The translations under genes were made by a program, and so were the position numbers. A DNA stretch of 35,633 nucleotides from a virus (lineage: Duplodnaviria > Heunggongvirae > Uroviricota > Caudoviricetes), in the IMG/VR virus record IMGVR_UViG_2541047595_000015; one strand, written 5' to 3'. Shown piece after piece: positions 3,007 through 31,405 of this stretch (position 1 is its first letter; each line of letters starts with the position of its first letter). Under the pieces are notes generated by a model that had not been told where the DNA came from, ran no database searches, and saw nothing but the letters and a program-made list of their open reading frames with translations.

Positions 3007-3344
3007 AGCAACTCCTGAGTCCGGGTCTGTCCGTCTGAGCCTTTCCAGCTCACCCGGAGCGTAAGATGTTCGCCGTCGACGGCGGGTTTAACTGACATAA
3101 GCTGGCAGCGGGGCTCCCAGCGTCGGATGGCATCGACGGATTCGCGCACCACATGCGGAATGGCCCGGTCTACAGGCCAGTCGATATAAAGATGCAGATT
3201 GCTGCCGAACTCCGGGCGATGCGGGTCGCTGCCGCGGGGAGTCCGCAGGATAATTTGAATCGCCTGCCGGATATCATCCAGCCCCCGGACAATTTCGCCG
3301 GGAGCCTGCAGGGTCGGTTGCCAGAATACTGAGGTTGTTTTCAT
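2997..3344 (-). CDS. Baseplate assembly protein W (gp25-like)
   Basis: 115 aa, size and position typical of GPW/gp25; follows the V-like spike gene. Confidence 0.7.
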   Translation of the reverse strand: MKTTSVFWQPTLQAPGEIVRGLDDIRQAIQIILRTPRGSDPHRPEFGSNLHLYIDWPVDRAIPHVVRESVDAIRRWEPRCQLMSVKPAVDGEHLTLRVSWKGSDGQTRTQELLWR

Positions 3345-3398
3345 GGGGGCAGTATTGCCCCCGTGCGGGAACGCTGATATTAAAGGCGTTTAAAAAGC

Positions 3399-3995
3399 TC
3401 AGTGGGAGTGGTGGCTGGAGTTTTCGCCATCAGACAACATACTGCCCGTGGCATGGGCATTCCCTTTAATCTCGATATTGCCATGGATGGTCGCGGTAAC
3501 ACCTTCACCACCAGAACCCGCCATGCCTCCTTCGTAAATCAGCTTACCCCTGACACGCAGATCTCCGGTAAGTTCGGTTTCCGGTGCGTCAATCGTGGCT
3601 TTCTGTGTTTTCAATACCACATCAGCACCACACTCAATGACAATATGCTCAATGCCGCCCCGGATGATCAGAGTGTGCGTCTTCCGGTTGTAGCTGTACT
3701 CTGCACCATCAGCAAACCGGGTTCCCCGGATATTTTTGTCACTGAACGGTGGTTTATCGACGTCTGAATACACCGCGCCCAGAATAACACCATCCTCGCC
3801 GTTGGCATCGAGCAGCACCTCAACCTGCTCCCCCACGTCAGGGAGCCAGTAATCTTTGTTATCCTGGGTATTGCGCTGCAGCACGTTAAGCCAGTTTGTG
3901 CGCAGGTTATCGCATTCAGGCAGACGAACGCGGGCCTGAACCCTGTCGGCATCAACGGCACTGACCGTACCGACCTGACGAGTGACACCAGTCAT
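3399..3995 (-). CDS. Baseplate spike / assembly protein V (P2 gpV, Mu gp45-like)
   Basis: 198 aa; glycine-rich C-terminal region; located between the D-like and W-like genes. Confidence 0.65.
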   Translation of the reverse strand: MTGVTRQVGTVSAVDADRVQARVRLPECDNLRTNWLNVLQRNTQDNKDYWLPDVGEQVEVLLDANGEDGVILGAVYSDVDKPPFSDKNIRGTRFADGAEYSYNRKTHTLIIRGGIEHIVIECGADVVLKTQKATIDAPETELTGDLRVRGKLIYEGGMAGSGGEGVTATIHGNIEIKGNAHATGSMLSDGENSSHHSH

Positions 3996-23365: not shown

Positions 23366-23469
23366 GCATCACAAATACAGGGCGCAAAGGATTTTAAAGC
23401 GCGTTAAGAGAGCCGGGGATACGGGATGTGCAGGATAAACGATGAATTATTCACAGAGGAGAATACGAT

Positions 23470-23946
23470 ATGACGCACACACTGAATCCGGTCATCACTG
23501 TCACTGTGTCCGGTCCTGTGGGCAGCGGTAAAAGTTACGTACTGGCGCGGATAGAAGAGATGGTGAAACAGGAACTCGGAAACAGCGTCATTGTCGATGC
23601 TGCTGACGTGGAGAATGAGCGCCGTATGAATGGCGAAGATCTGACGACCTGGCAGAAGCCACGGGGTGGCACAGTGATCAGGCTAGAGGAATACACGGGA
23701 CAGGGCCTGTTGTCATACGGCGAGGAGCGTATCTGTCGGACGAATGAGCTGCTGGATGTTATATGCCCCACGGGCCGGCAACCCTGGATACTGCCCGATG
23801 CACTGCATGCCACCATTGCGGCACTGATGACAGTTTACGATCAGGAGCTGCTCATGAAGGAGTTACGTAAACTCACCGGTCAGCCAACAGAATGTTGTTC
23901 GTCTCCGAAGTACGGCAAACAGGAAAACGCCCCGGATAATCCTTAA
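23470..23946 (+). CDS. P-loop NTPase-like hypothetical protein
   Basis: 158 aa; N-terminal Walker A-like GPVGSGKS; GAGGAG RBS upstream of the ATG; transcribed divergently from the late operon; cysteine pair near the C-terminus (ECCSSP). Confidence 0.5.
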   Translation: MTHTLNPVITVTVSGPVGSGKSYVLARIEEMVKQELGNSVIVDAADVENERRMNGEDLTTWQKPRGGTVIRLEEYTGQGLLSYGEERICRTNELLDVICPTGRQPWILPDALHATIAALMTVYDQELLMKELRKLTGQPTECCSSPKYGKQENAPDNP

Positions 23947-23950
23947 GATA

Positions 23951-23981
23951 CCTCCTGAACAGAAACAGCCCTGAAGGGCTG
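23951..23981 (-). terminator. Rho-independent terminator candidate ending the repressor-linked operon
   Basis: Perfect hairpin CAGCCC-TGAA-GGGCTG at 23966-23981, directly after the stop at 23984. On the minus strand it is followed by UUUCUGUUC. Confidence 0.55.
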
Positions 23982-23983
23982 CA

Positions 23984-24574
23984 CTAAAAAAAGAAGTGTA
24001 TTATTGCCCAAACAGCTATAACGATGATTCCCAGCCCAAGAGCCGATTCTAACTTATCTTTGGCAGTCATTTTTACTGTTGTAGCGGGCGCAGGTAAGTC
24101 TTGCTGCTGTGGATTTTCTGTTAGTTGTTTACGAGAAGAAACATCGCCCCTATTAGTTTGCTTCATGTTGATTACAGATGCGTTATGGGCATTATCAGCA
24201 GCAATTGACTGAAGTTTTACAAAAGTTTTTGAATCTGTTTTAGCCAGAAGTAACCTATTTCCCGTAAACATTGCCTTAAAAGTGATAGTTTTTTTCGTCT
24301 TGTCCGCCGCACCAAGCAAACCTCCAATGACCAACCCTGCACCACCAAAGATTAATCCACCAAGCAAACCTGCGCCTGCCGCCTTACCTATACGGCTTTC
24401 CTCTTCACTATCCGCAAGTTCAATCGATAAAAGCTCTTCTTTCAGATTTAATACAATATTTTCAGGAAAGCCTTGTTTTGGTTTTTTGGCAAACACGATG
24501 GTACCGAACCCCATGCTTGCCCACCCTTTAGGAAAACTTCCTGCGATAACCTGAATCCCTGCCATGTTCATCAC
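23984..24574 (-). CDS. Membrane protein with glycine-zipper segment and C-terminal hydrophobic tail
   Basis: 196 aa; GAGLLGGLIFGGAGLVIGGLLGAA glycine zipper; C-terminal LGLGIIVIAVWAIIHFFF; AT-rich codon usage unlike the phage core. Confidence 0.5.
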   Translation of the reverse strand: MMNMAGIQVIAGSFPKGWASMGFGTIVFAKKPKQGFPENIVLNLKEELLSIELADSEEESRIGKAAGAGLLGGLIFGGAGLVIGGLLGAADKTKKTITFKAMFTGNRLLLAKTDSKTFVKLQSIAADNAHNASVINMKQTNRGDVSSRKQLTENPQQQDLPAPATTVKMTAKDKLESALGLGIIVIAVWAIIHFFF

Positions 24575-24655
24575 CTTTTACATTAAAATTTCAGAACGCA
24601 GCATGATGCCGCCTTTGTCTTTTTTCTGATCCCATGGTAATTCAGCTGTTATTTT

Positions 24656-25642
24656 CTATTTAAGAATAAAACGGTATTTACTGTCAGGAGTGCTTTGCTG
24701 ATCAAGTAGCAGTGAACGACATGGAGCAGTCAAAACCCGAGCATAACTACCATCAGGGCTTATGTTAATGTAACAAACCTTGCCCTTAACACTATAATTT
24801 TCGGGGACGGATGCCTTTGCTGATACAGTAAATTTAAGGGTATGCCAGCCCGTTTTTTGCTTGTAGCTTGAAACCGAATGGAAATCATCTGAGTACTTAT
24901 TTAACCCTGGAAACATGCTGCGCAGTGCGGGGATGGAATCTTCTATTATTTTATCGTTGGTTTTAATGTTAAAAACGCTGGTTTCAGTAGAAGCTACTGC
25001 TTTGGCATTTCCCCATTTACCAGCGAACACAATCATTCCCACGAAAAATATTGCTACAAGAACTAACACTCCCCCCAACACTACTACATGAGGCTTCCGG
25101 CTTCTGGTTGGTACAGTTGCGACTGATTTTGCACCGCTTTCCGATGGAGGTGATAGAGTTTTACTCTCATCACGAATATTCAGCAGATCATCAAAATAAC
25201 CAAACACAGCCTGCAACTGCTCTTTGTCTAGGCCTTTAAGATGGGTTGTACCGAAATGCTTCAGACAGTATCTGTCACGGTCAAGACGATACCCAGGGTC
25301 AGTAAGCGCCATTATTTTGCTGACCAGAAGATTACAGTCCTTCATATTCTGGATCTGTTGTGCATATCTCTGAAGGATCTCAACCGCACCATGATAATCA
25401 GCCGCAGTCATTTCATTAACTGTTTTGGTATTAAGTTTCGTGTGGATCGTCATCCATAGCTCGCGCTTACTTTCCCCCAGATCAACCAATTCATCCATCA
25501 ATCTGTGTAAATCGCGTTTTTGCAGCAACGAAATTGGTTGCTGGGCCGAAGGAAGTATGTCAGCAGAATAGTTATGAATGGTAACATCACCGCTGACAAC
25601 GTTACCCACATCCCCGTTAACTGTTTGCTTCTCTTTACTCAT
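24656..25642 (-). CDS. Single-pass membrane protein (cytoplasmic N-domain, TM, C-terminal ~110-aa domain)
   Basis: 328 aa; one hydrophobic helix (HVVVLGGVLVLVAIFFVGMIVFAG) in the middle; ATGA overlap with the upstream HTH gene; AT-rich. Confidence 0.5.
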   Translation of the reverse strand: MSKEKQTVNGDVGNVVSGDVTIHNYSADILPSAQQPISLLQKRDLHRLMDELVDLGESKRELWMTIHTKLNTKTVNEMTAADYHGAVEILQRYAQQIQNMKDCNLLVSKIMALTDPGYRLDRDRYCLKHFGTTHLKGLDKEQLQAVFGYFDDLLNIRDESKTLSPPSESGAKSVATVPTRSRKPHVVVLGGVLVLVAIFFVGMIVFAGKWGNAKAVASTETSVFNIKTNDKIIEDSIPALRSMFPGLNKYSDDFHSVSSYKQKTGWHTLKFTVSAKASVPENYSVKGKVCYINISPDGSYARVLTAPCRSLLLDQQSTPDSKYRFILK

Positions 25643-26100
25643 CTTCTCTTGGTATTTTTGTTCATTATTCCACCTGTTCCTATGGTTACGTTACCTTTGA
25701 TAACATTCCCCAGAACATCTCCATGAATAACCTGTTCCGCCCGTTCTCTGGAGGAGCCAGTAGTCAAGGCCGACAAAACTGAACCTTTGACCTGTAATGG
25801 TGCCTGCCGGTAGTGCTGCAGTAACTCCATTTCATCACGTGATAAAGTTATACCTGATGACTCCCCGGTAAGAATGAACTGTACATTGGCCCCAATTCTT
25901 GCAAAGGCTGCAAGTAACTCACCTCCGGGAACAGCAACCCCTCGTTCATATTTCCCCCACATTTCTCTTGAAACGCCACAAAGGGCTGCTACTTCAGCCT
26001 GCTTGAGTGATAACCGCGAACGCTCAGCTTTGAACCGCGACGCGCAAAGAGAATCAAAATTCACATAAACCTCATTGACAATGAGAACAATAGTTCTCAT
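25639..26100 (-). CDS. XRE-family HTH transcriptional regulator (candidate prophage repressor)
   Basis: 153 aa; HTH_XRE-type motif LSLKQAEVAALCGVSREMWGKYERG; divergent from the Ner-like early gene as in the Mu c/ner switch; start codon lies inside an inverted repeat. Confidence 0.7.
   Translation of the reverse strand: MRTIVLIVNEVYVNFDSLCASRFKAERSRLSLKQAEVAALCGVSREMWGKYERGVAVPGGELLAAFARIGANVQFILTGESSGITLSRDEMELLQHYRQAPLQVKGSVLSALTTGSSRERAEQVIHGDVLGNVIKGNVTIGTGGIMNKNTKRR
26081..26100. promoter_or_regulatory. Inverted repeat (operator candidate) overlapping the repressor start codon
   Basis: ATGAGAAC-aata-GTTCTCAT: 8-bp arms with a 4-bp spacer; minus-strand ATG at 26100-26098 lies within one arm. 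Confidence 0.45.
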
Positions 26101-26150
26101 AATCTATCACATATAAAACAAACATCATTGCATCAACAAAGGAGACAACA

Positions 26151-26339
26151 ATGACTTCCGAACAAGTTAAAAATCTCTTCCGTCAGCGTGGTATCACGTT
26201 TACCCGCTGGGCCGAAGAACACGGCTACAGCCGCAATGAGGTCTATCGTGTTCTCAATGGACAGACCAAAGCTCGTTACGGCAAAGCCCATGAAATTGCC
26301 GTAAAACTGGGATTAAAACCCACGTCAAATGCGGCATAA
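26151..26339 (+). CDS. Small Ner/Cro-like DNA-binding regulator (first early gene)
   Basis: 62 aa; AGGAG RBS; HTH-like TRWAEEHGYSRNEVYRVLNG; divergent from the repressor gene; resembles small DNA-binding proteins of BcepMu-like phages (from memory). Confidence 0.6.
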   Translation: MTSEQVKNLFRQRGITFTRWAEEHGYSRNEVYRVLNGQTKARYGKAHEIAVKLGLKPTSNAA

Positions 26340-26391
26340 ATTTTCCACATATGCAACAGGTTATCACATATTGCAAAAATGGAAATGTGAC

Positions 26392-26700
26392 ATGAGTAAA
26401 GTAAATATTTCCAGTTCTGGGACCCGCATCCTACGTGTACTCAAAGCTCTACGCGGTCATGCTCTGAACGGTGTTTCTAACGGTGAACTGGCATCAGCCC
26501 TGGGGGAGTCCCCAGCGAATATCAATCGAGCACTTAATACCCTTATTGAAGAGGGACTGGCCATGAAATTAGAGAACGGACGTTTCGCACCGGGAATCCA
26601 GTTACTACAGATCGCCATGGCTCACAGTCACGAGATGGCGCGTGCACAGGATCGTATTAACGAAATCAACCAACGAGTTATTTCAGGTAGTCGTTTGTAA
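26392..26700 (+). CDS. Winged-helix DNA-binding protein (hypothetical regulator)
   Basis: Start placed at the ATG at 26392 (MSKVNISSSGTRILRVLKALRG...); MarR/IclR-like HTH region GVSNGELASALGESPANINRALNTLIEEGLA. Confidence 0.45.
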   Translation: MSKVNISSSGTRILRVLKALRGHALNGVSNGELASALGESPANINRALNTLIEEGLAMKLENGRFAPGIQLLQIAMAHSHEMARAQDRINEINQRVISGSRL

Positions 26701-29408: not shown

Positions 29409-30575
29409 ATGCTGGTACTGAAGCAGCAACTGAAAGAGGCCCGTATTCCACAGGCGGTGGTGGCGAGAGCTGTCGATGTTTCTGAGGCCACGCTGGCCCA
29501 GATTGTGAATCATAACGCGTGGCCCCGCACCAGCCCCGGAGAAGTGCGCCGGCGTCTTGCGTCCTGGCTGGAAAGTCAGGGGATTGATACAACGAAGAGT
29601 TTTGATGCTGTACAGGGCGCGGCCACGCCCCGTACAGCGGGTACCACAGATAAAACGAGCCTCAGTGAGGAAGAGAATATGTTACTCAAAAAACAGGTGT
29701 TATTTCCAGCAACCAAAAAAGCGTTTGGTCTTTTCCGTGACCCGTTCGCCGACGAAGCCATGCAGGGTTCTGATGATGTGTTCACCACTCCGGACATTCG
29801 CTACGTGCGTGAGGCGCTGTACCAGACAGCCCGTCATGGTGGGTTTATGGCCGTCATCGGTGAGTCCGGTGCGGGTAAATCCACGCTGCGCCGTGACCTG
29901 ACTGAACGTATCAACCGCGAGAATGCGCCGGTGATTGTTATCGAGCCATACATCATCGCTATGGAAGACAACGATGTGAAAGGGAAAACCCTGAAGGCAG
30001 CAGCGATTGCCGAAGCCATTATCAGTACCATCGCACCACTGGAAAGCATCAGACGCAGTCAGGACGCCCGCTTTCGCCAGCTGCATCGCGTCCTGAAAGA
30101 CAGCAGCCAGGCGGGGTTCAGCCACGTTCTGGTGATTGAGGAGGCCCACAGTCTGCCCATTCCGACACTGAAACACCTCAAACGCTTTTTTGAGCTGGAG
30201 TCCGGTTTCAAAAAACTGCTGTCCATCGTGCTGATTGGCCAGCCGGAACTGGCGACAAAACTGTCTGAACGCAATATGGAAGTCCGTGAAGTCGTTCAGC
30301 GCTGTGAGGTGGTCGAACTTCTGCCTCTGGACAATAACCTTGAAGAGTTTCTGACGTTCAAACTGCAACGGGCCGGTAAACAACTGACGGACATTATGGA
30401 CGCCAGCGCAGTGGATGCCATACGTGCCCGCCTGAGCAATCCGGGAAGTCATCGTAAAAATATGGTCAGCCTGCTGTATCCGCTGGCCGTCAGTAACCTG
30501 GTAATAGCCGCCATGAATCTGGCCGCTGAAATCGGGGTTCCACAGGTCAACGCTGACGTTGTCAAAGGGGTTTAA
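29409..30575 (+). CDS. Transposition ATPase (MuB/TniB-like AAA+)
   Basis: Start at the ATG at 29409 with GAGGAGGG RBS; Walker A GESGAGKST; N-terminal HTH-like segment; follows the transposase. Confidence 0.8.
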   Translation: MLVLKQQLKEARIPQAVVARAVDVSEATLAQIVNHNAWPRTSPGEVRRRLASWLESQGIDTTKSFDAVQGAATPRTAGTTDKTSLSEEENMLLKKQVLFPATKKAFGLFRDPFADEAMQGSDDVFTTPDIRYVREALYQTARHGGFMAVIGESGAGKSTLRRDLTERINRENAPVIVIEPYIIAMEDNDVKGKTLKAAAIAEAIISTIAPLESIRRSQDARFRQLHRVLKDSSQAGFSHVLVIEEAHSLPIPTLKHLKRFFELESGFKKLLSIVLIGQPELATKLSERNMEVREVVQRCEVVELLPLDNNLEEFLTFKLQRAGKQLTDIMDASAVDAIRARLSNPGSHRKNMVSLLYPLAVSNLVIAAMNLAAEIGVPQVNADVVKGV

Positions 30576-30577
30576 TA

Positions 30578-30847
30578 ATGAAATCCACCACAGGTATCAA
30601 CCAGCAAATCAGCAAAGTGCAGTCAGCCATTATGGCGCTTAAGGCGACGAACACGGATGTACAAAGCATCACCATCAGGGGTAACAAACCTGTCATCCGC
30701 GTTTCCCGGAGTGCGCATTGCATGCGCATGCTTGAGCAGGGAAAGGCCTGTTATCTGTATACCGGACATGACCACAGGGGATATTTCCGTCAGGGCGTTT
30801 TCGAACTGCACGGCTGTCGCGTCGTGTGGCCGGAATCTTTGTGGTAA
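30578..30847 (+). CDS. Hypothetical protein (Kil-position small early protein)
   Basis: 89 aa; 2 nt after the B stop, with RBS; no recognisable motif. Confidence 0.4.
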   Translation: MKSTTGINQQISKVQSAIMALKATNTDVQSITIRGNKPVIRVSRSAHCMRMLEQGKACYLYTGHDHRGYFRQGVFELHGCRVVWPESLW

Positions 30848-30874
30848 TCAGCACAACTGGAGAAATCATAAAAA

Positions 30875-31405
30875 ATGGCAAAAAGTACAAAAGGTGCAAA
30901 ACGTATCAAGGCCGCAGCAGCACTCTGGGTGCCGGGGACACGTGAAGAGGTCATTGAGGGAATCAGACTACTCGGTGACGCACAACGTGAACTGGTCAGG
31001 GCTGAAACAGAAATGAATGACGCCATTGGCGATATCACCGCACGTTATGCCCCGCTCACCGAGAGCCTGAAAAAACGCATGGCCGAACTGCAGTCCGGTA
31101 TTCAGACATGGTGTGAGGCACACCGTGATGAACTGACCGGCAACGGGAAGGTGAAGTTCGCTAACCTCACCACCGGCGAGGTGCAGTGGCGAAACCGTCC
31201 GCCATCAGTCAGTATCCGTGGGGCGGATAATGTTATTGAATTACTGAGACGTCTGGGGCTTGAGCGCTTTATTCGTGTAAAAGAGGAAATAAATAAAGAC
31301 GCTATCCTGAATGAAAAAGAGGCCGTGAAAAATATTCCCGGTATTTCCATTAAAAGCGACATTGAGGATTTTTCAATAATTCCTTTTGAGCAGGATGTGC
31401 AGTAA
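30875..31405 (+). CDS. gam: Host-nuclease inhibitor protein Gam (Mu Gam family)
   Basis: 176 aa; strong resemblance throughout to Mu Gam (e.g. MAK..KRIK.AAA, ETEMNDAI, WCEA.RDELT.NGKVK.ANL.TG.V.WR.RPPSVSIRG, IEDFSIIPFEQ), recalled from memory. Confidence 0.85.
   Translation: MAKSTKGAKRIKAAAALWVPGTREEVIEGIRLLGDAQRELVRAETEMNDAIGDITARYAPLTESLKKRMAELQSGIQTWCEAHRDELTGNGKVKFANLTTGEVQWRNRPPSVSIRGADNVIELLRRLGLERFIRVKEEINKDAILNEKEAVKNIPGISIKSDIEDFSIIPFEQDVQ

Follow-up and report, generated by a model that had tools for sequence, protein, structure and literature searches.

In phage lambda, the repressor gene cI is followed in the same operon by rexA and rexB, which encode membrane-associated proteins, and the operon diverges from the early lytic operon. 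Products of adjacent genes are also connected through bacterial amyloid signalling motifs, stretches of about 25 amino acids (aa) that occur C-terminally in one product and N-terminally in the following one, are enriched in G, N, Q, V and I and are depleted in K, P and L; in Bab/Agp, an abortive-infection (Abi) system of Escherichia coli prophages, the shared motif BASS11 transmits activation by amyloid templating. Here we analyse a 35,633-nucleotide (nt) stretch of viral DNA (IMG/VR record IMGVR_UViG_2541047595_000015; the window, below, is this whole stretch, and all coordinates refer to it). The host element is a BcepMu-like transposable prophage of E. coli, and the region under study (23951-26100) is its leftward (lysogeny) operon, which encodes a repressor-position protein with a helix-turn-helix (HTH) domain, a 328-aa membrane protein and a second, smaller membrane protein. 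The tail of the repressor and the N-terminus of the 328-aa protein carry copies of the same motif, matched pairs of this kind recur in other BcepMu-like and in P2-like prophages, and we propose that the 328-aa protein is the cognate membrane partner of the repressor.

The comparison with lambda goes back to a preliminary description, made from the sequence alone, in which the two membrane proteins were considered a candidate exclusion or Abi module expressed in the lysogen. As far as the cI-rexA-rexB-like layout is concerned, this description holds: a repressor gene is followed by a coupled gene for a membrane protein, a gene for a second membrane protein and a terminator. All three predicted open reading frames (ORFs) on the minus strand were recovered, and homologues with 46-82% identity in Salmonella, Serratia, Yersinia and Morganella confirm that the genes are real. 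The first ORF (25639-26100, minus strand; 153 aa as called) encodes an XRE-type HTH protein that matches Pfam HTH_31 (E = 4.7e-7) and HTH_3 as well as PHROG families of transcriptional regulators or repressors, and diverges from a Ner-like early gene at 26151; because the arms of a BcepMu-like prophage flank this gene, it occupies the position of the immunity repressor. The gene for the 328-aa protein (24656-25642, minus strand; PHROG 10002) overlaps it by an ATGA stop/start (25639-25642, minus strand; read directly as ...AGAAGATGAGTAAA), which points to translational coupling. The same 4-nt overlap is present in related loci (L005, L007, L010, L011 and L136-147) and is kept in relatives from Serratia, Yersinia and metagenomes. 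The third gene lies at 23984-24565 on the minus strand, and the hydrophobic segments discussed below agree with a single-pass 328-aa protein and a glycine-zipper protein as originally proposed. The hairpin terminator expected at the operon end was found at 23965-23982 (minus strand; GCAGCCC-TTCA-GGGCTGT, a 7-bp stem with 5 GC pairs and a T-rich tail), and no terminator-like site precedes it inside the three-gene operon. Given this architecture, the three genes would be co-transcribed and expressed in the lysogen.

The resemblance to lambda does not extend to the proteins themselves. Neither by sequence nor by profile do the window proteins resemble RexA or RexB, and the earlier impression that neither membrane protein resembles a known defence protein stands: the best PADLOC match of the 328-aa protein is not significant (E-value of 0.014), the third protein has none, and the Pfam and NCBIfam searches hit no defence family. 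Furthermore, RexB is a polytopic channel protein and the Rex proteins have no motif in common with cI, whereas the second gene of the window operon is tied to the repressor both by translational coupling and by a copied terminal motif.

The repressor copy of this motif, RAEQVIHGDVLGNVIKGNVTI (25681-25743, minus strand; residues 120-140), is followed by a short basic end, and the copy in the 328-aa protein, QTVNGDVGNVVSGDVTI (25577-25627, minus strand), spans residues 6-22. The end of the repressor, ...RAEQVIHGDVLGNVIKGNVTIGTGG..., thus finds its counterpart in the start of the partner, MSKEKQTVNGDVGNVVSGDVTIHNY; the local alignment of the two scores 55 compared to 30 ± 4.6 for shuffled sequences, with none of the 2000 shuffles reaching 55 (z of about 5-9). 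Both copies are conserved in all members of the window family, the partner copy being nearly invariant in the family alignment (G10, G13-G18 and V20-I22). Other prophages carry matched pairs of their own, namely another BcepMu-like prophage (LNISGNASRIAGRDF and LNVGGDNNRIAGRDF), P2-like prophages (ITGSGHRVAGRDYNE and NSRGTDNRIAGRDFHE), a third group (FHGSVGQSVAGNVTNKSGVTFNVG and FHGDVGQAAAGDINNYGVSISL), a P2-like element (VVHGDVGQTVKGNVTI and IIHGDVGIVAEGDVI) and a fifth group (FNGDISGQFAGNQIIN and FNGTAQGQFSSRDIIN). A matched tail was detected in all 80 P2-like loci from IMG/VR (38 distinct pairs) and, in a second IMG/VR scan that covered another lineage, in all 28 readable loci; scans from P0055 and P0050 retrieved no viral loci. 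Altogether, about 140 loci of BcepMu-like and P2-like prophages combine a repressor tail with a matching partner N-terminus.

The match is specific to the cognate pair. In a 9x9 matrix of repressor tails against partner N-termini, the scores are block-diagonal, at about 51 within a motif type and about 24 between types (permutation P = 1.2e-4), and every cognate pair is 4-12 standard deviations above shuffled sequences. When the 73 distinct pairs were aligned over their full lengths, the best block (median length 19 aa, range 13-55) was located 4 residues from the C-terminus of the repressor and 2 residues from the N-terminus of the partner. Identical residues in the two copies use the same codon in 38% of the cases, compared to 35% expected by chance, and the nucleotide identity is 57%; since the same-codon rate is close to chance, it is selection acting on the peptides that maintains the similarity. 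An origin of the motif by gene conversion or from a repeat in the DNA was rejected given this codon usage and the gaps that are required to align the window motifs at the DNA level. Compositionally, the motif is enriched in G (2.2-fold), N (3.9-fold) and V (1.6-fold) and depleted in L (0.23-fold), P (0.11-fold) and K (0.44-fold); Q and I are not enriched.

The partner of the window repressor contains a Flk_N-like domain (see below), and a scan based on the repressors identified matched pairs in which the partner is not of this type. These partners are proteins of 136-143 aa with two transmembrane (TM) segments (L158, L169 and L173) or proteins of 118-120 aa with a CPxC motif (L151, L153 and L154). 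Because they also start with a copy of the repressor tail, the motif behaves as a portable adaptor that is attached to several kinds of downstream protein.

The association between the two genes is as tight as the match between their products. Among 5,426 complete E. coli genomes, the 328-aa gene is present in 127, and the segment that encodes the repressor C-terminal part and the junction is likewise present in 127, with one-to-one co-occurrence. Where the genomic context was read, in Serratia, Yersinia, metagenomic contigs, P2-like prophages and phage 520873, a Flk_N-type gene was found directly 3' of the repressor-position HTH gene in every relative. Moreover, two unrelated versions of the HTH domain are joined to one and the same C-terminal half and partner (the HTH is swapped in L004, L005 and L007), so that the partner stays attached when the DNA-binding domain is exchanged. 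Conversely, both the tail motif and the partner are missing where an integrase or some other gene follows the repressor, and they are also missing from BcepMu-like prophages with other repressor types. The 127/127 co-occurrence, the survival of the HTH swaps and the N-terminus that copies the repressor tail together argue that the 328-aa gene is not independently acquired cargo.

Several observations on individual loci belong here. In Escherichia phage 520873 (L019; NC_049344), an unannotated Flk_N-type gene (3284-3896) lies between the repressor gp04 and the integrase and is apparently frameshifted (ORFs of 55 and 115 aa); the N-terminus of this partner, NSNGSNNRVAGRDFHE, matches the repressor tail, NISGGNNRIAGRDYNE. 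In 11 of the 80 P2-like loci and in L024 (2654-3550), a 298-aa protein with an N-terminal BRCT domain is encoded between the Flk_N partner and the integrase. A programmed frameshift that would fuse repressor and partner was considered and dismissed, given a stop 7 codons upstream in the partner frame, the lack of a canonical slippery site and the spacing of 10-16 nt between the genes of P2-like pairs.

The repressor itself consists of an XRE HTH domain (25897-26037, minus strand; residues ~22-68, Pfam match coordinates), a short helical C-terminal region and the G/N/V-rich tail of about 20 aa. Its true start is probably the GTG at 26064, which would yield a protein of 141 aa, because a GAGG Shine-Dalgarno sequence lies 5 nt upstream and the homologues begin with VNFDSL preceded by an in-frame stop; the called ATG (26100) falls within the -10 region of the early promoter.

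The 328-aa protein belongs to a family with homologues only in Enterobacterales, and three structural units follow its N-terminal motif: a cytoplasmic helical Flk_N-like domain (25163-25552, minus strand; residues ~31-160), a single TM helix with the N-terminus inside (25019-25090, minus strand; residues ~185-208, Kyte-Doolittle value 3.05) and a periplasmic alpha/beta domain with conserved C290 and C308 (24659-24982, minus strand; residues ~221-328). In the AlphaFold2 (AF2) model of the monomer, the helical domain and the alpha/beta domain are confidently predicted, the latter with a predicted local distance difference test score (pLDDT) above 90, and the TM helix runs between them. The N-in/C-out topology is assigned because homologues of the periplasmic domain are lipoproteins, and the sequence RSRKPH is present on the N-terminal side of the TM helix.

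Flk (Fluke or RflH) of Salmonella and E. coli shares the helical domain and is likewise held in the inner membrane by a single, C-proximal TM segment; among the relatives of the phage protein, the short ones are genuinely tail-anchored. The homology is significant but confined to this domain: the match to NCBIfam NF007987 (E = 2.9e-12, residues 19-147) reaches 46.6 bits against the Flk cut-off of 353, so that the protein is not an equivalog of full-length Flk (about 335 aa in the model), the hhalign comparison of the helical domain with Flk of E. coli K-12 gives a probability of 76% (E = 2.2e-5), and members of the family carry precomputed matches to Pfam Flk_N (PF27202). Flk itself, with 330-430 aa and repeated helical modules, is encoded on the chromosome (pdxB-flk) and has no G/N/V motif, no periplasmic domain and no partner repressor. 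In contrast to a tail-anchored, wholly cytoplasmic Flk-type protein, the window protein continues after the TM helix with a periplasmic domain of 120 aa. An internal repeat within the Flk_N-like domain was not significant at the sequence level. The short Flk_N partners of L024 (1998-2636) and L021 (3001-3621) weakly match phrog_245, annotated 'anti-repressor Ant' (E = 4e-4 and 1e-3), over their first helical module; the window protein falls below that threshold.

The periplasmic domain is similar to a separate 177-aa lipoprotein of L010 (BLASTP E = 1e-15), and in sister prophages the lipoprotein gene directly follows a truncated Flk_N-TM gene. A homologous lipoprotein with a lipobox is encoded downstream of the partner gene in 19 of the 30 type-3 loci, and in KP12_2 such a lipoprotein stands behind an unrelated repressor, with no Flk_N gene. 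For this domain, a Foldseek search against the Protein Data Bank (PDB) found nothing better than E = 0.16 and Pfam gave no match; there are no solved structures among the sequence relatives of either membrane-protein family. An exhaustive search of 1.84 billion representative sequences returned matches to the N-terminal domain that are mostly tail-anchored proteins of 185-225 aa and matches to the C-terminal domain of 130-200 aa, with only three matches containing both domains; true Flk proteins were reached only at E of about 1e-4. Given that the periplasmic domain occurs separately as a lipoprotein in sister phages, the 328-aa protein is a fusion of two modules that are usually apart. Proteins combining the HTH and Flk_N domains in a single polypeptide were not found among 115 representatives, and in 50,697 phage records the only relatives of either membrane protein were remote partial matches.

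Among the described systems, the amyloid pairs (Bab/Agp with BASS11, fungal HET-S/NWD2 and BASS1-10 of filamentous bacteria) offer a close parallel to the matched termini. The window pair agrees with them in having a motif of some 20-25 aa, in the position and composition of the motif, in the existence of several pair-matched motif types, in having one membrane-directed partner and in the prophage setting. It differs from them in its domains: there is neither an NLR, STAND or TPR sensor nor a death-effector domain such as Bell, HeLo, TIR or CHAT, and the C-terminal motif is attached to a DNA-binding repressor and the N-terminal motif to a Flk_N-type membrane protein.

We propose, giving this reading about an even chance, that the matching motifs of the repressor and of the 328-aa protein bind each other and thereby link the repressor to the inner membrane. 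The ATGA overlap would keep synthesis of the partner in pace with that of the repressor, and the repressor tail and the partner N-terminus would form a homotypic beta-strand contact of the amyloid-signalling-motif kind, whereby the membrane protein would serve the repressor as a tether or as a template, and a change of state in one protein would be relayed to its partner. Direct recognition between the partners, as opposed to reading of both by a common host factor, is suggested because pair-specific motif types diversify among prophages that share hosts. The preferred direction is that the membrane protein would act on the repressor, sequestering it, inactivating it or concentrating it at the membrane, which would provide an envelope input for a repressor without a LexA-type cleavage domain; the fused periplasmic domain may serve as a sensor or in exclusion. 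Gene order and the non-toxic relative Flk favour this direction, whereas the constancy of the repressor and the variety of its partners favour the opposite one, in which the repressor guards an effector. The sequences show the gene structure, the domain composition, indicators of topology, the obligate linkage and both the matching and the co-variation of the motifs; that the two proteins touch, that their contact has a beta or amyloid character, which way a signal runs and all phenotypes are inferred. The more general proposal, that two unrelated temperate lineages, BcepMu-like and P2-like, couple their repressors to a membrane protein by templated beta-assembly of a diversifying, pair-specific, amyloid-like motif, is more tentative, and we regard it as doubtful.

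Several observations weigh against the proposed coupling. In the AF2 monomer, residues 1-29 of the partner are disordered, with low pLDDT at the motif. At a median of 19 aa, the motif is at the short end for amyloid signalling motifs, a systematic test of the fetched loci found no HET-s-like pseudo-repeats, that is, no second copy of the motif in either protein, and the pair lacks an NLR or any other known oligomerising sensor. Nor is the motif universal: in the loci of type 4 (L017, L022, L155 and L180), a Flk_N partner is present but no match between tail and N-terminus is detectable. The type 4 repressor ends in a helical ...(I/V)LKLV(V/I)N(R/H), and its partner has an extra N-terminal helix followed by GNSxNINFGTQLN, so that coupling, if any, would use another interface. 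If the two proteins are made 1:1 by coupled synthesis, simple sequestration would leave no free repressor, and a regulated contact must be assumed. Finally, the membrane protein is the variable element across the loci (Flk_N, 2-TM or CPxC), which fits the opposite direction as well. As a separate observation, distant Flk_N partners (P0051, P0057 and P0062) contain two motif-like units recognised by eye, for example NRAAGRDFNE ... LIGRDIVNI.

The main alternatives grant the operon but assign a different meaning to the motif. It is unlikely, in our assessment, that the operon is a Rex-like, lysogeny-expressed defence module in which both membrane proteins are exclusion or Abi cargo on the repressor promoter and the motif is irrelevant to their function. 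This view draws on the operon architecture with its terminator, on the mosaic and AT-rich character of the region, on the third gene in a variable slot and on the homologues of the periplasmic domain, which are stand-alone lipoproteins of lysogeny operons, even behind the unrelated repressor of KP12_2. Exclusion proteins that block receptors or entry, such as Cor and Llp, are classically stand-alone lipoproteins. Like the exclusion lipoproteins (Cor, Llp and Ltp) and Sie proteins, the homologues of the periplasmic domain have a lipobox, and their genes lie immediately 3' of the repressor gene; neither in sequence nor in fold, however, was a similarity to them detected, and the window domain is fused to an inner-membrane anchor instead. 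The lack of PADLOC matches for either membrane protein and the remote, partial nature of their relatives in phage records also count against a defence module, which, furthermore, leaves unexplained the 127/127 co-occurrence with the C-terminal part of the repressor, the survival of the pair through HTH-domain swaps and the co-varying matched motifs in about 140 loci. The block between 23951 and 27000 is indeed AT-richer than the rest (GC content 0.437 compared to 0.558), as had been described, with a sharp left edge near 23950, but it is not confined to the operon and extends to about 27000, taking in the Ner-like and IclR-type early regulators. The associated suggestion of horizontally acquired cargo fits the exchangeable third gene (present with 97 of the 127 pairs) and fails for the 328-aa gene, which is tied one-to-one to the repressor. 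Thus, of the exclusion or Abi module once proposed, the architecture, the variable third slot and the lipoprotein-format homologues speak in its favour, but the 328-aa protein is better seen as a conserved partner that co-evolves with the repressor and has no match to defence proteins, and the idea survives as a possibility for the periplasmic domain and the third gene.

The motif would be central if the membrane protein were a toxic or membrane-perturbing effector that is held or triggered, via the motif, by a repressor acting as sensor, such that destruction of the repressor, its titration by a foreign anti-repressor or its aggregation results in killing or arrest of the cell; this explanation, too, we consider improbable. 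A constant repressor accompanied by diverse small membrane partners with matching N-termini (Flk_N-TM, 2-TM proteins of 136-143 aa and CPxC proteins) is compatible with it, a precedent exists in an E. coli prophage, where a membrane death effector is switched on through a matched motif, and the 4-nt overlap and the HTH-then-partner order resemble type II toxin-antitoxin (TA) systems with an HTH-XRE antitoxin, where the upstream gene likewise encodes a small HTH protein whose C-terminal tail is flexible. The corresponding antitoxin matches are weak, at 16-20 bits against NCBIfam cut-offs of 62-290 for HipB, MqsA and PezA, the partner belongs to no toxin family, and, in contrast to TA modules, the HTH protein occupies the prophage immunity position and its partner is a 328-aa multidomain membrane protein. 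In addition, in the known amyloid pairs the C-terminal motif is on the effector and the N-terminal motif on the sensor, whereas here the membrane protein carries the N-terminal one; the Flk_N domain resembles protein-binding helical modules rather than pore formers; the chromosomal relative Flk is a non-toxic regulator; and 127 E. coli genomes stably maintain the pair, which would, however, hold for a TA pair as well. We find it very unlikely that the two motifs do not bind each other at all but are both read by one host protease or chaperone, with the membrane protein as a decoy that protects or exposes the repressor. The motifs are terminal, exposed and predicted to be disordered in the monomer, and anchoring in the membrane would place such a decoy beside FtsH; the Mu repressor is controlled by ClpXP through its C-terminus, and lambda CIII is a decoy-type precedent for CII with FtsH. 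Yet a common enterobacterial host factor should fix the motif, whereas at least five types exist, always matched within the pair, and different types occur in prophages of one host species, as expected of partner-specific recognition that avoids cross-talk. The least probable of these explanations is a phage-borne Flk that acts on the type III export switch of the host flagellum, as Flk does; this would amount to lysogenic conversion and might, for example, block flagellotropic phages, and the link to the repressor would be transcriptional only. Flk, a cytoplasmic protein anchored in the membrane, interacts with FlhA-C in two-hybrid assays, and the NCBIfam, hhalign and Pfam evidence for homology to its N-terminal region is significant; but the similarity is limited to about 120 residues and to a score far below the model cut-off, true Flk proteins emerge only at the fringe of the exhaustive search, Flk lacks both the N-terminal motif and the periplasmic domain, and the matched repressor tail would remain unexplained.

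The third gene has a different evolutionary behaviour from the repressor-partner pair. Its start is ATG 24565, as in RefSeq and all homologues, yielding a protein of 193 aa (MAGIQ...) in place of the 196 aa called from GTG 24574. It belongs to the Pfam family PH_gly_zipper (PF27000), which combines a PH-like beta-sandwich with a C-terminal helix and a glycine-zipper insert. The hydrophobic insert, KAAGAGLLGGLIFGGAGLVIGGLLGAADK (24299-24385, minus strand; residues ~64-92 in the 196-aa numbering), lies between PH strands 5 and 6, and a C-terminal hydrophobic anchor follows (23987-24043, minus strand; residues 178-196 in the same numbering, Kyte-Doolittle value 2.49), so that the protein would present a split PH-like domain to the cytoplasm while being held in the membrane by the glycine-zipper hairpin and the anchor. 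In the relative P0037, a SHOCT domain replaces the C-terminal anchor, and in a compost contig a version ending in SHOCT is encoded downstream of an HTH/Flk_N pair. Elsewhere, the third slot is occupied by a 203-aa protein with a DUF2441 protein, by a 249-aa membrane protein or by a lipoprotein, or is empty, and in BcepMu-like prophages of Citrobacter the third gene stands behind a Phage_CI_repr-type repressor with no Flk_N gene. In E. coli 503025 (L003, 2395-3991), where the slot holds the 203-aa and DUF2441 proteins, the P-loop gene described below is absent. No PADLOC match and no relative in the 50,697 phage records was found for the third gene, and its product has no motif in common with the neighbouring proteins. 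The gene is most readily understood as an independent moron that occupies the lysogeny operon's variable slot; it is plausible that its product acts at the membrane in exclusion or Abi, and homology gives this role no support.

The region is found with 100% identity in many complete E. coli genomes, CE10 and IAI39 among them. According to the RefSeq annotation of the CE10 copy, the late genes run leftward from the holin (holin, SLT, Mu-type head and P2-type tail, in the BcepMu-like layout), the early arm runs rightward (Ner-like, IclR-type HTH, DUF3102, DDE transposase, ExeA/MuB-like ATPase, Gam and Mor), and the three genes lie between the two arms. The CE10 copy (L001) has an IS3 insertion in the early arm (29892-31069) and pseudogenes among the late genes (gp25-like and DUF3486), and is probably defective. 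The nearest sequenced phage, PhiKM, classified in Bcepmuvirus, has in common with this region the flanking P-loop gene only and lacks all three operon genes. This convergent gene (23470-23946, plus strand; 158 aa, labelled 'ABC transporter ATPase' in RefSeq) covers only positions 1-157 of the 242-position PHROG 3787 profile, compared to 242 aa in PhiKM, and represents a shortened version or else a short variant in its own right; L010 has a short version too. Its distribution in E. coli is much wider than that of the operon, with 605 genomes matching parts of 23400-26400. The Klebsiella phage KP12 clone KP12_2 mentioned above (L018; OM835952) is classified in Vequintavirinae but contains a BcepMu-like module (transposase, IclR-type regulator, holin and lysin), and may represent co-assembled prophage-derived sequence.

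The divergent control region contains a sigma-70-like early promoter directed toward the Ner-like gene (26075-26103, plus strand; TTGACA-17-CATAAT), recognised solely by 11 of 12 matches to the consensus. Over it lies a cluster of operator-like repeats, CAATGAG(A/G)/GTTCTC, also given as CAATGAG(A/G) / TGTTCTCA(T/A)TG (26065-26107, no strand assigned; inverted repeats I1-I4), and a second cluster (26233-26259) is located inside the Ner-like gene, about 160 bp from the first. The spacing of the two clusters suggests sites for the repressor or for Ner, with possible looping.

E. coli, Salmonella, Serratia and Yersinia commonly carry BcepMu-like and P2-like prophages, and the switching of the non-cleavable repressors of these prophages is poorly understood. 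To our knowledge, coupling of a repressor to a membrane protein through matched motifs has not been described previously: neither the repressor/Flk_N pairing nor a repressor with such a motif appears in the open-access papers and preprints we searched. So far, signalling of this type is known from fungal and bacterial immune pairs and from one E. coli Abi system, and the present pairs would extend it beyond NLR-type immune pairs to a core regulator of a virus. The motif provides a simple sequence rule for finding cognate repressor-partner pairs and a handle, in the form of proline or swap mutants, for controlling prophage induction. With the third gene, a further, uncharacterised family of membrane PH-like proteins joins the morons of lysogeny operons that merit a screen for phage exclusion. 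With pair-specific coupling, the lysogeny switch could receive input from the envelope by a route open to experimental test or, if the direction is reversed, the pair would be a repressor-guarded suicide device. If templated beta-assembly, rather than cleavage or a soluble anti-repressor, indeed runs the lysogeny switch or a repressor-guarded death effector, this would represent a new class of amyloid-type signalling in enterobacterial prophages and a new input route to prophage repressors.

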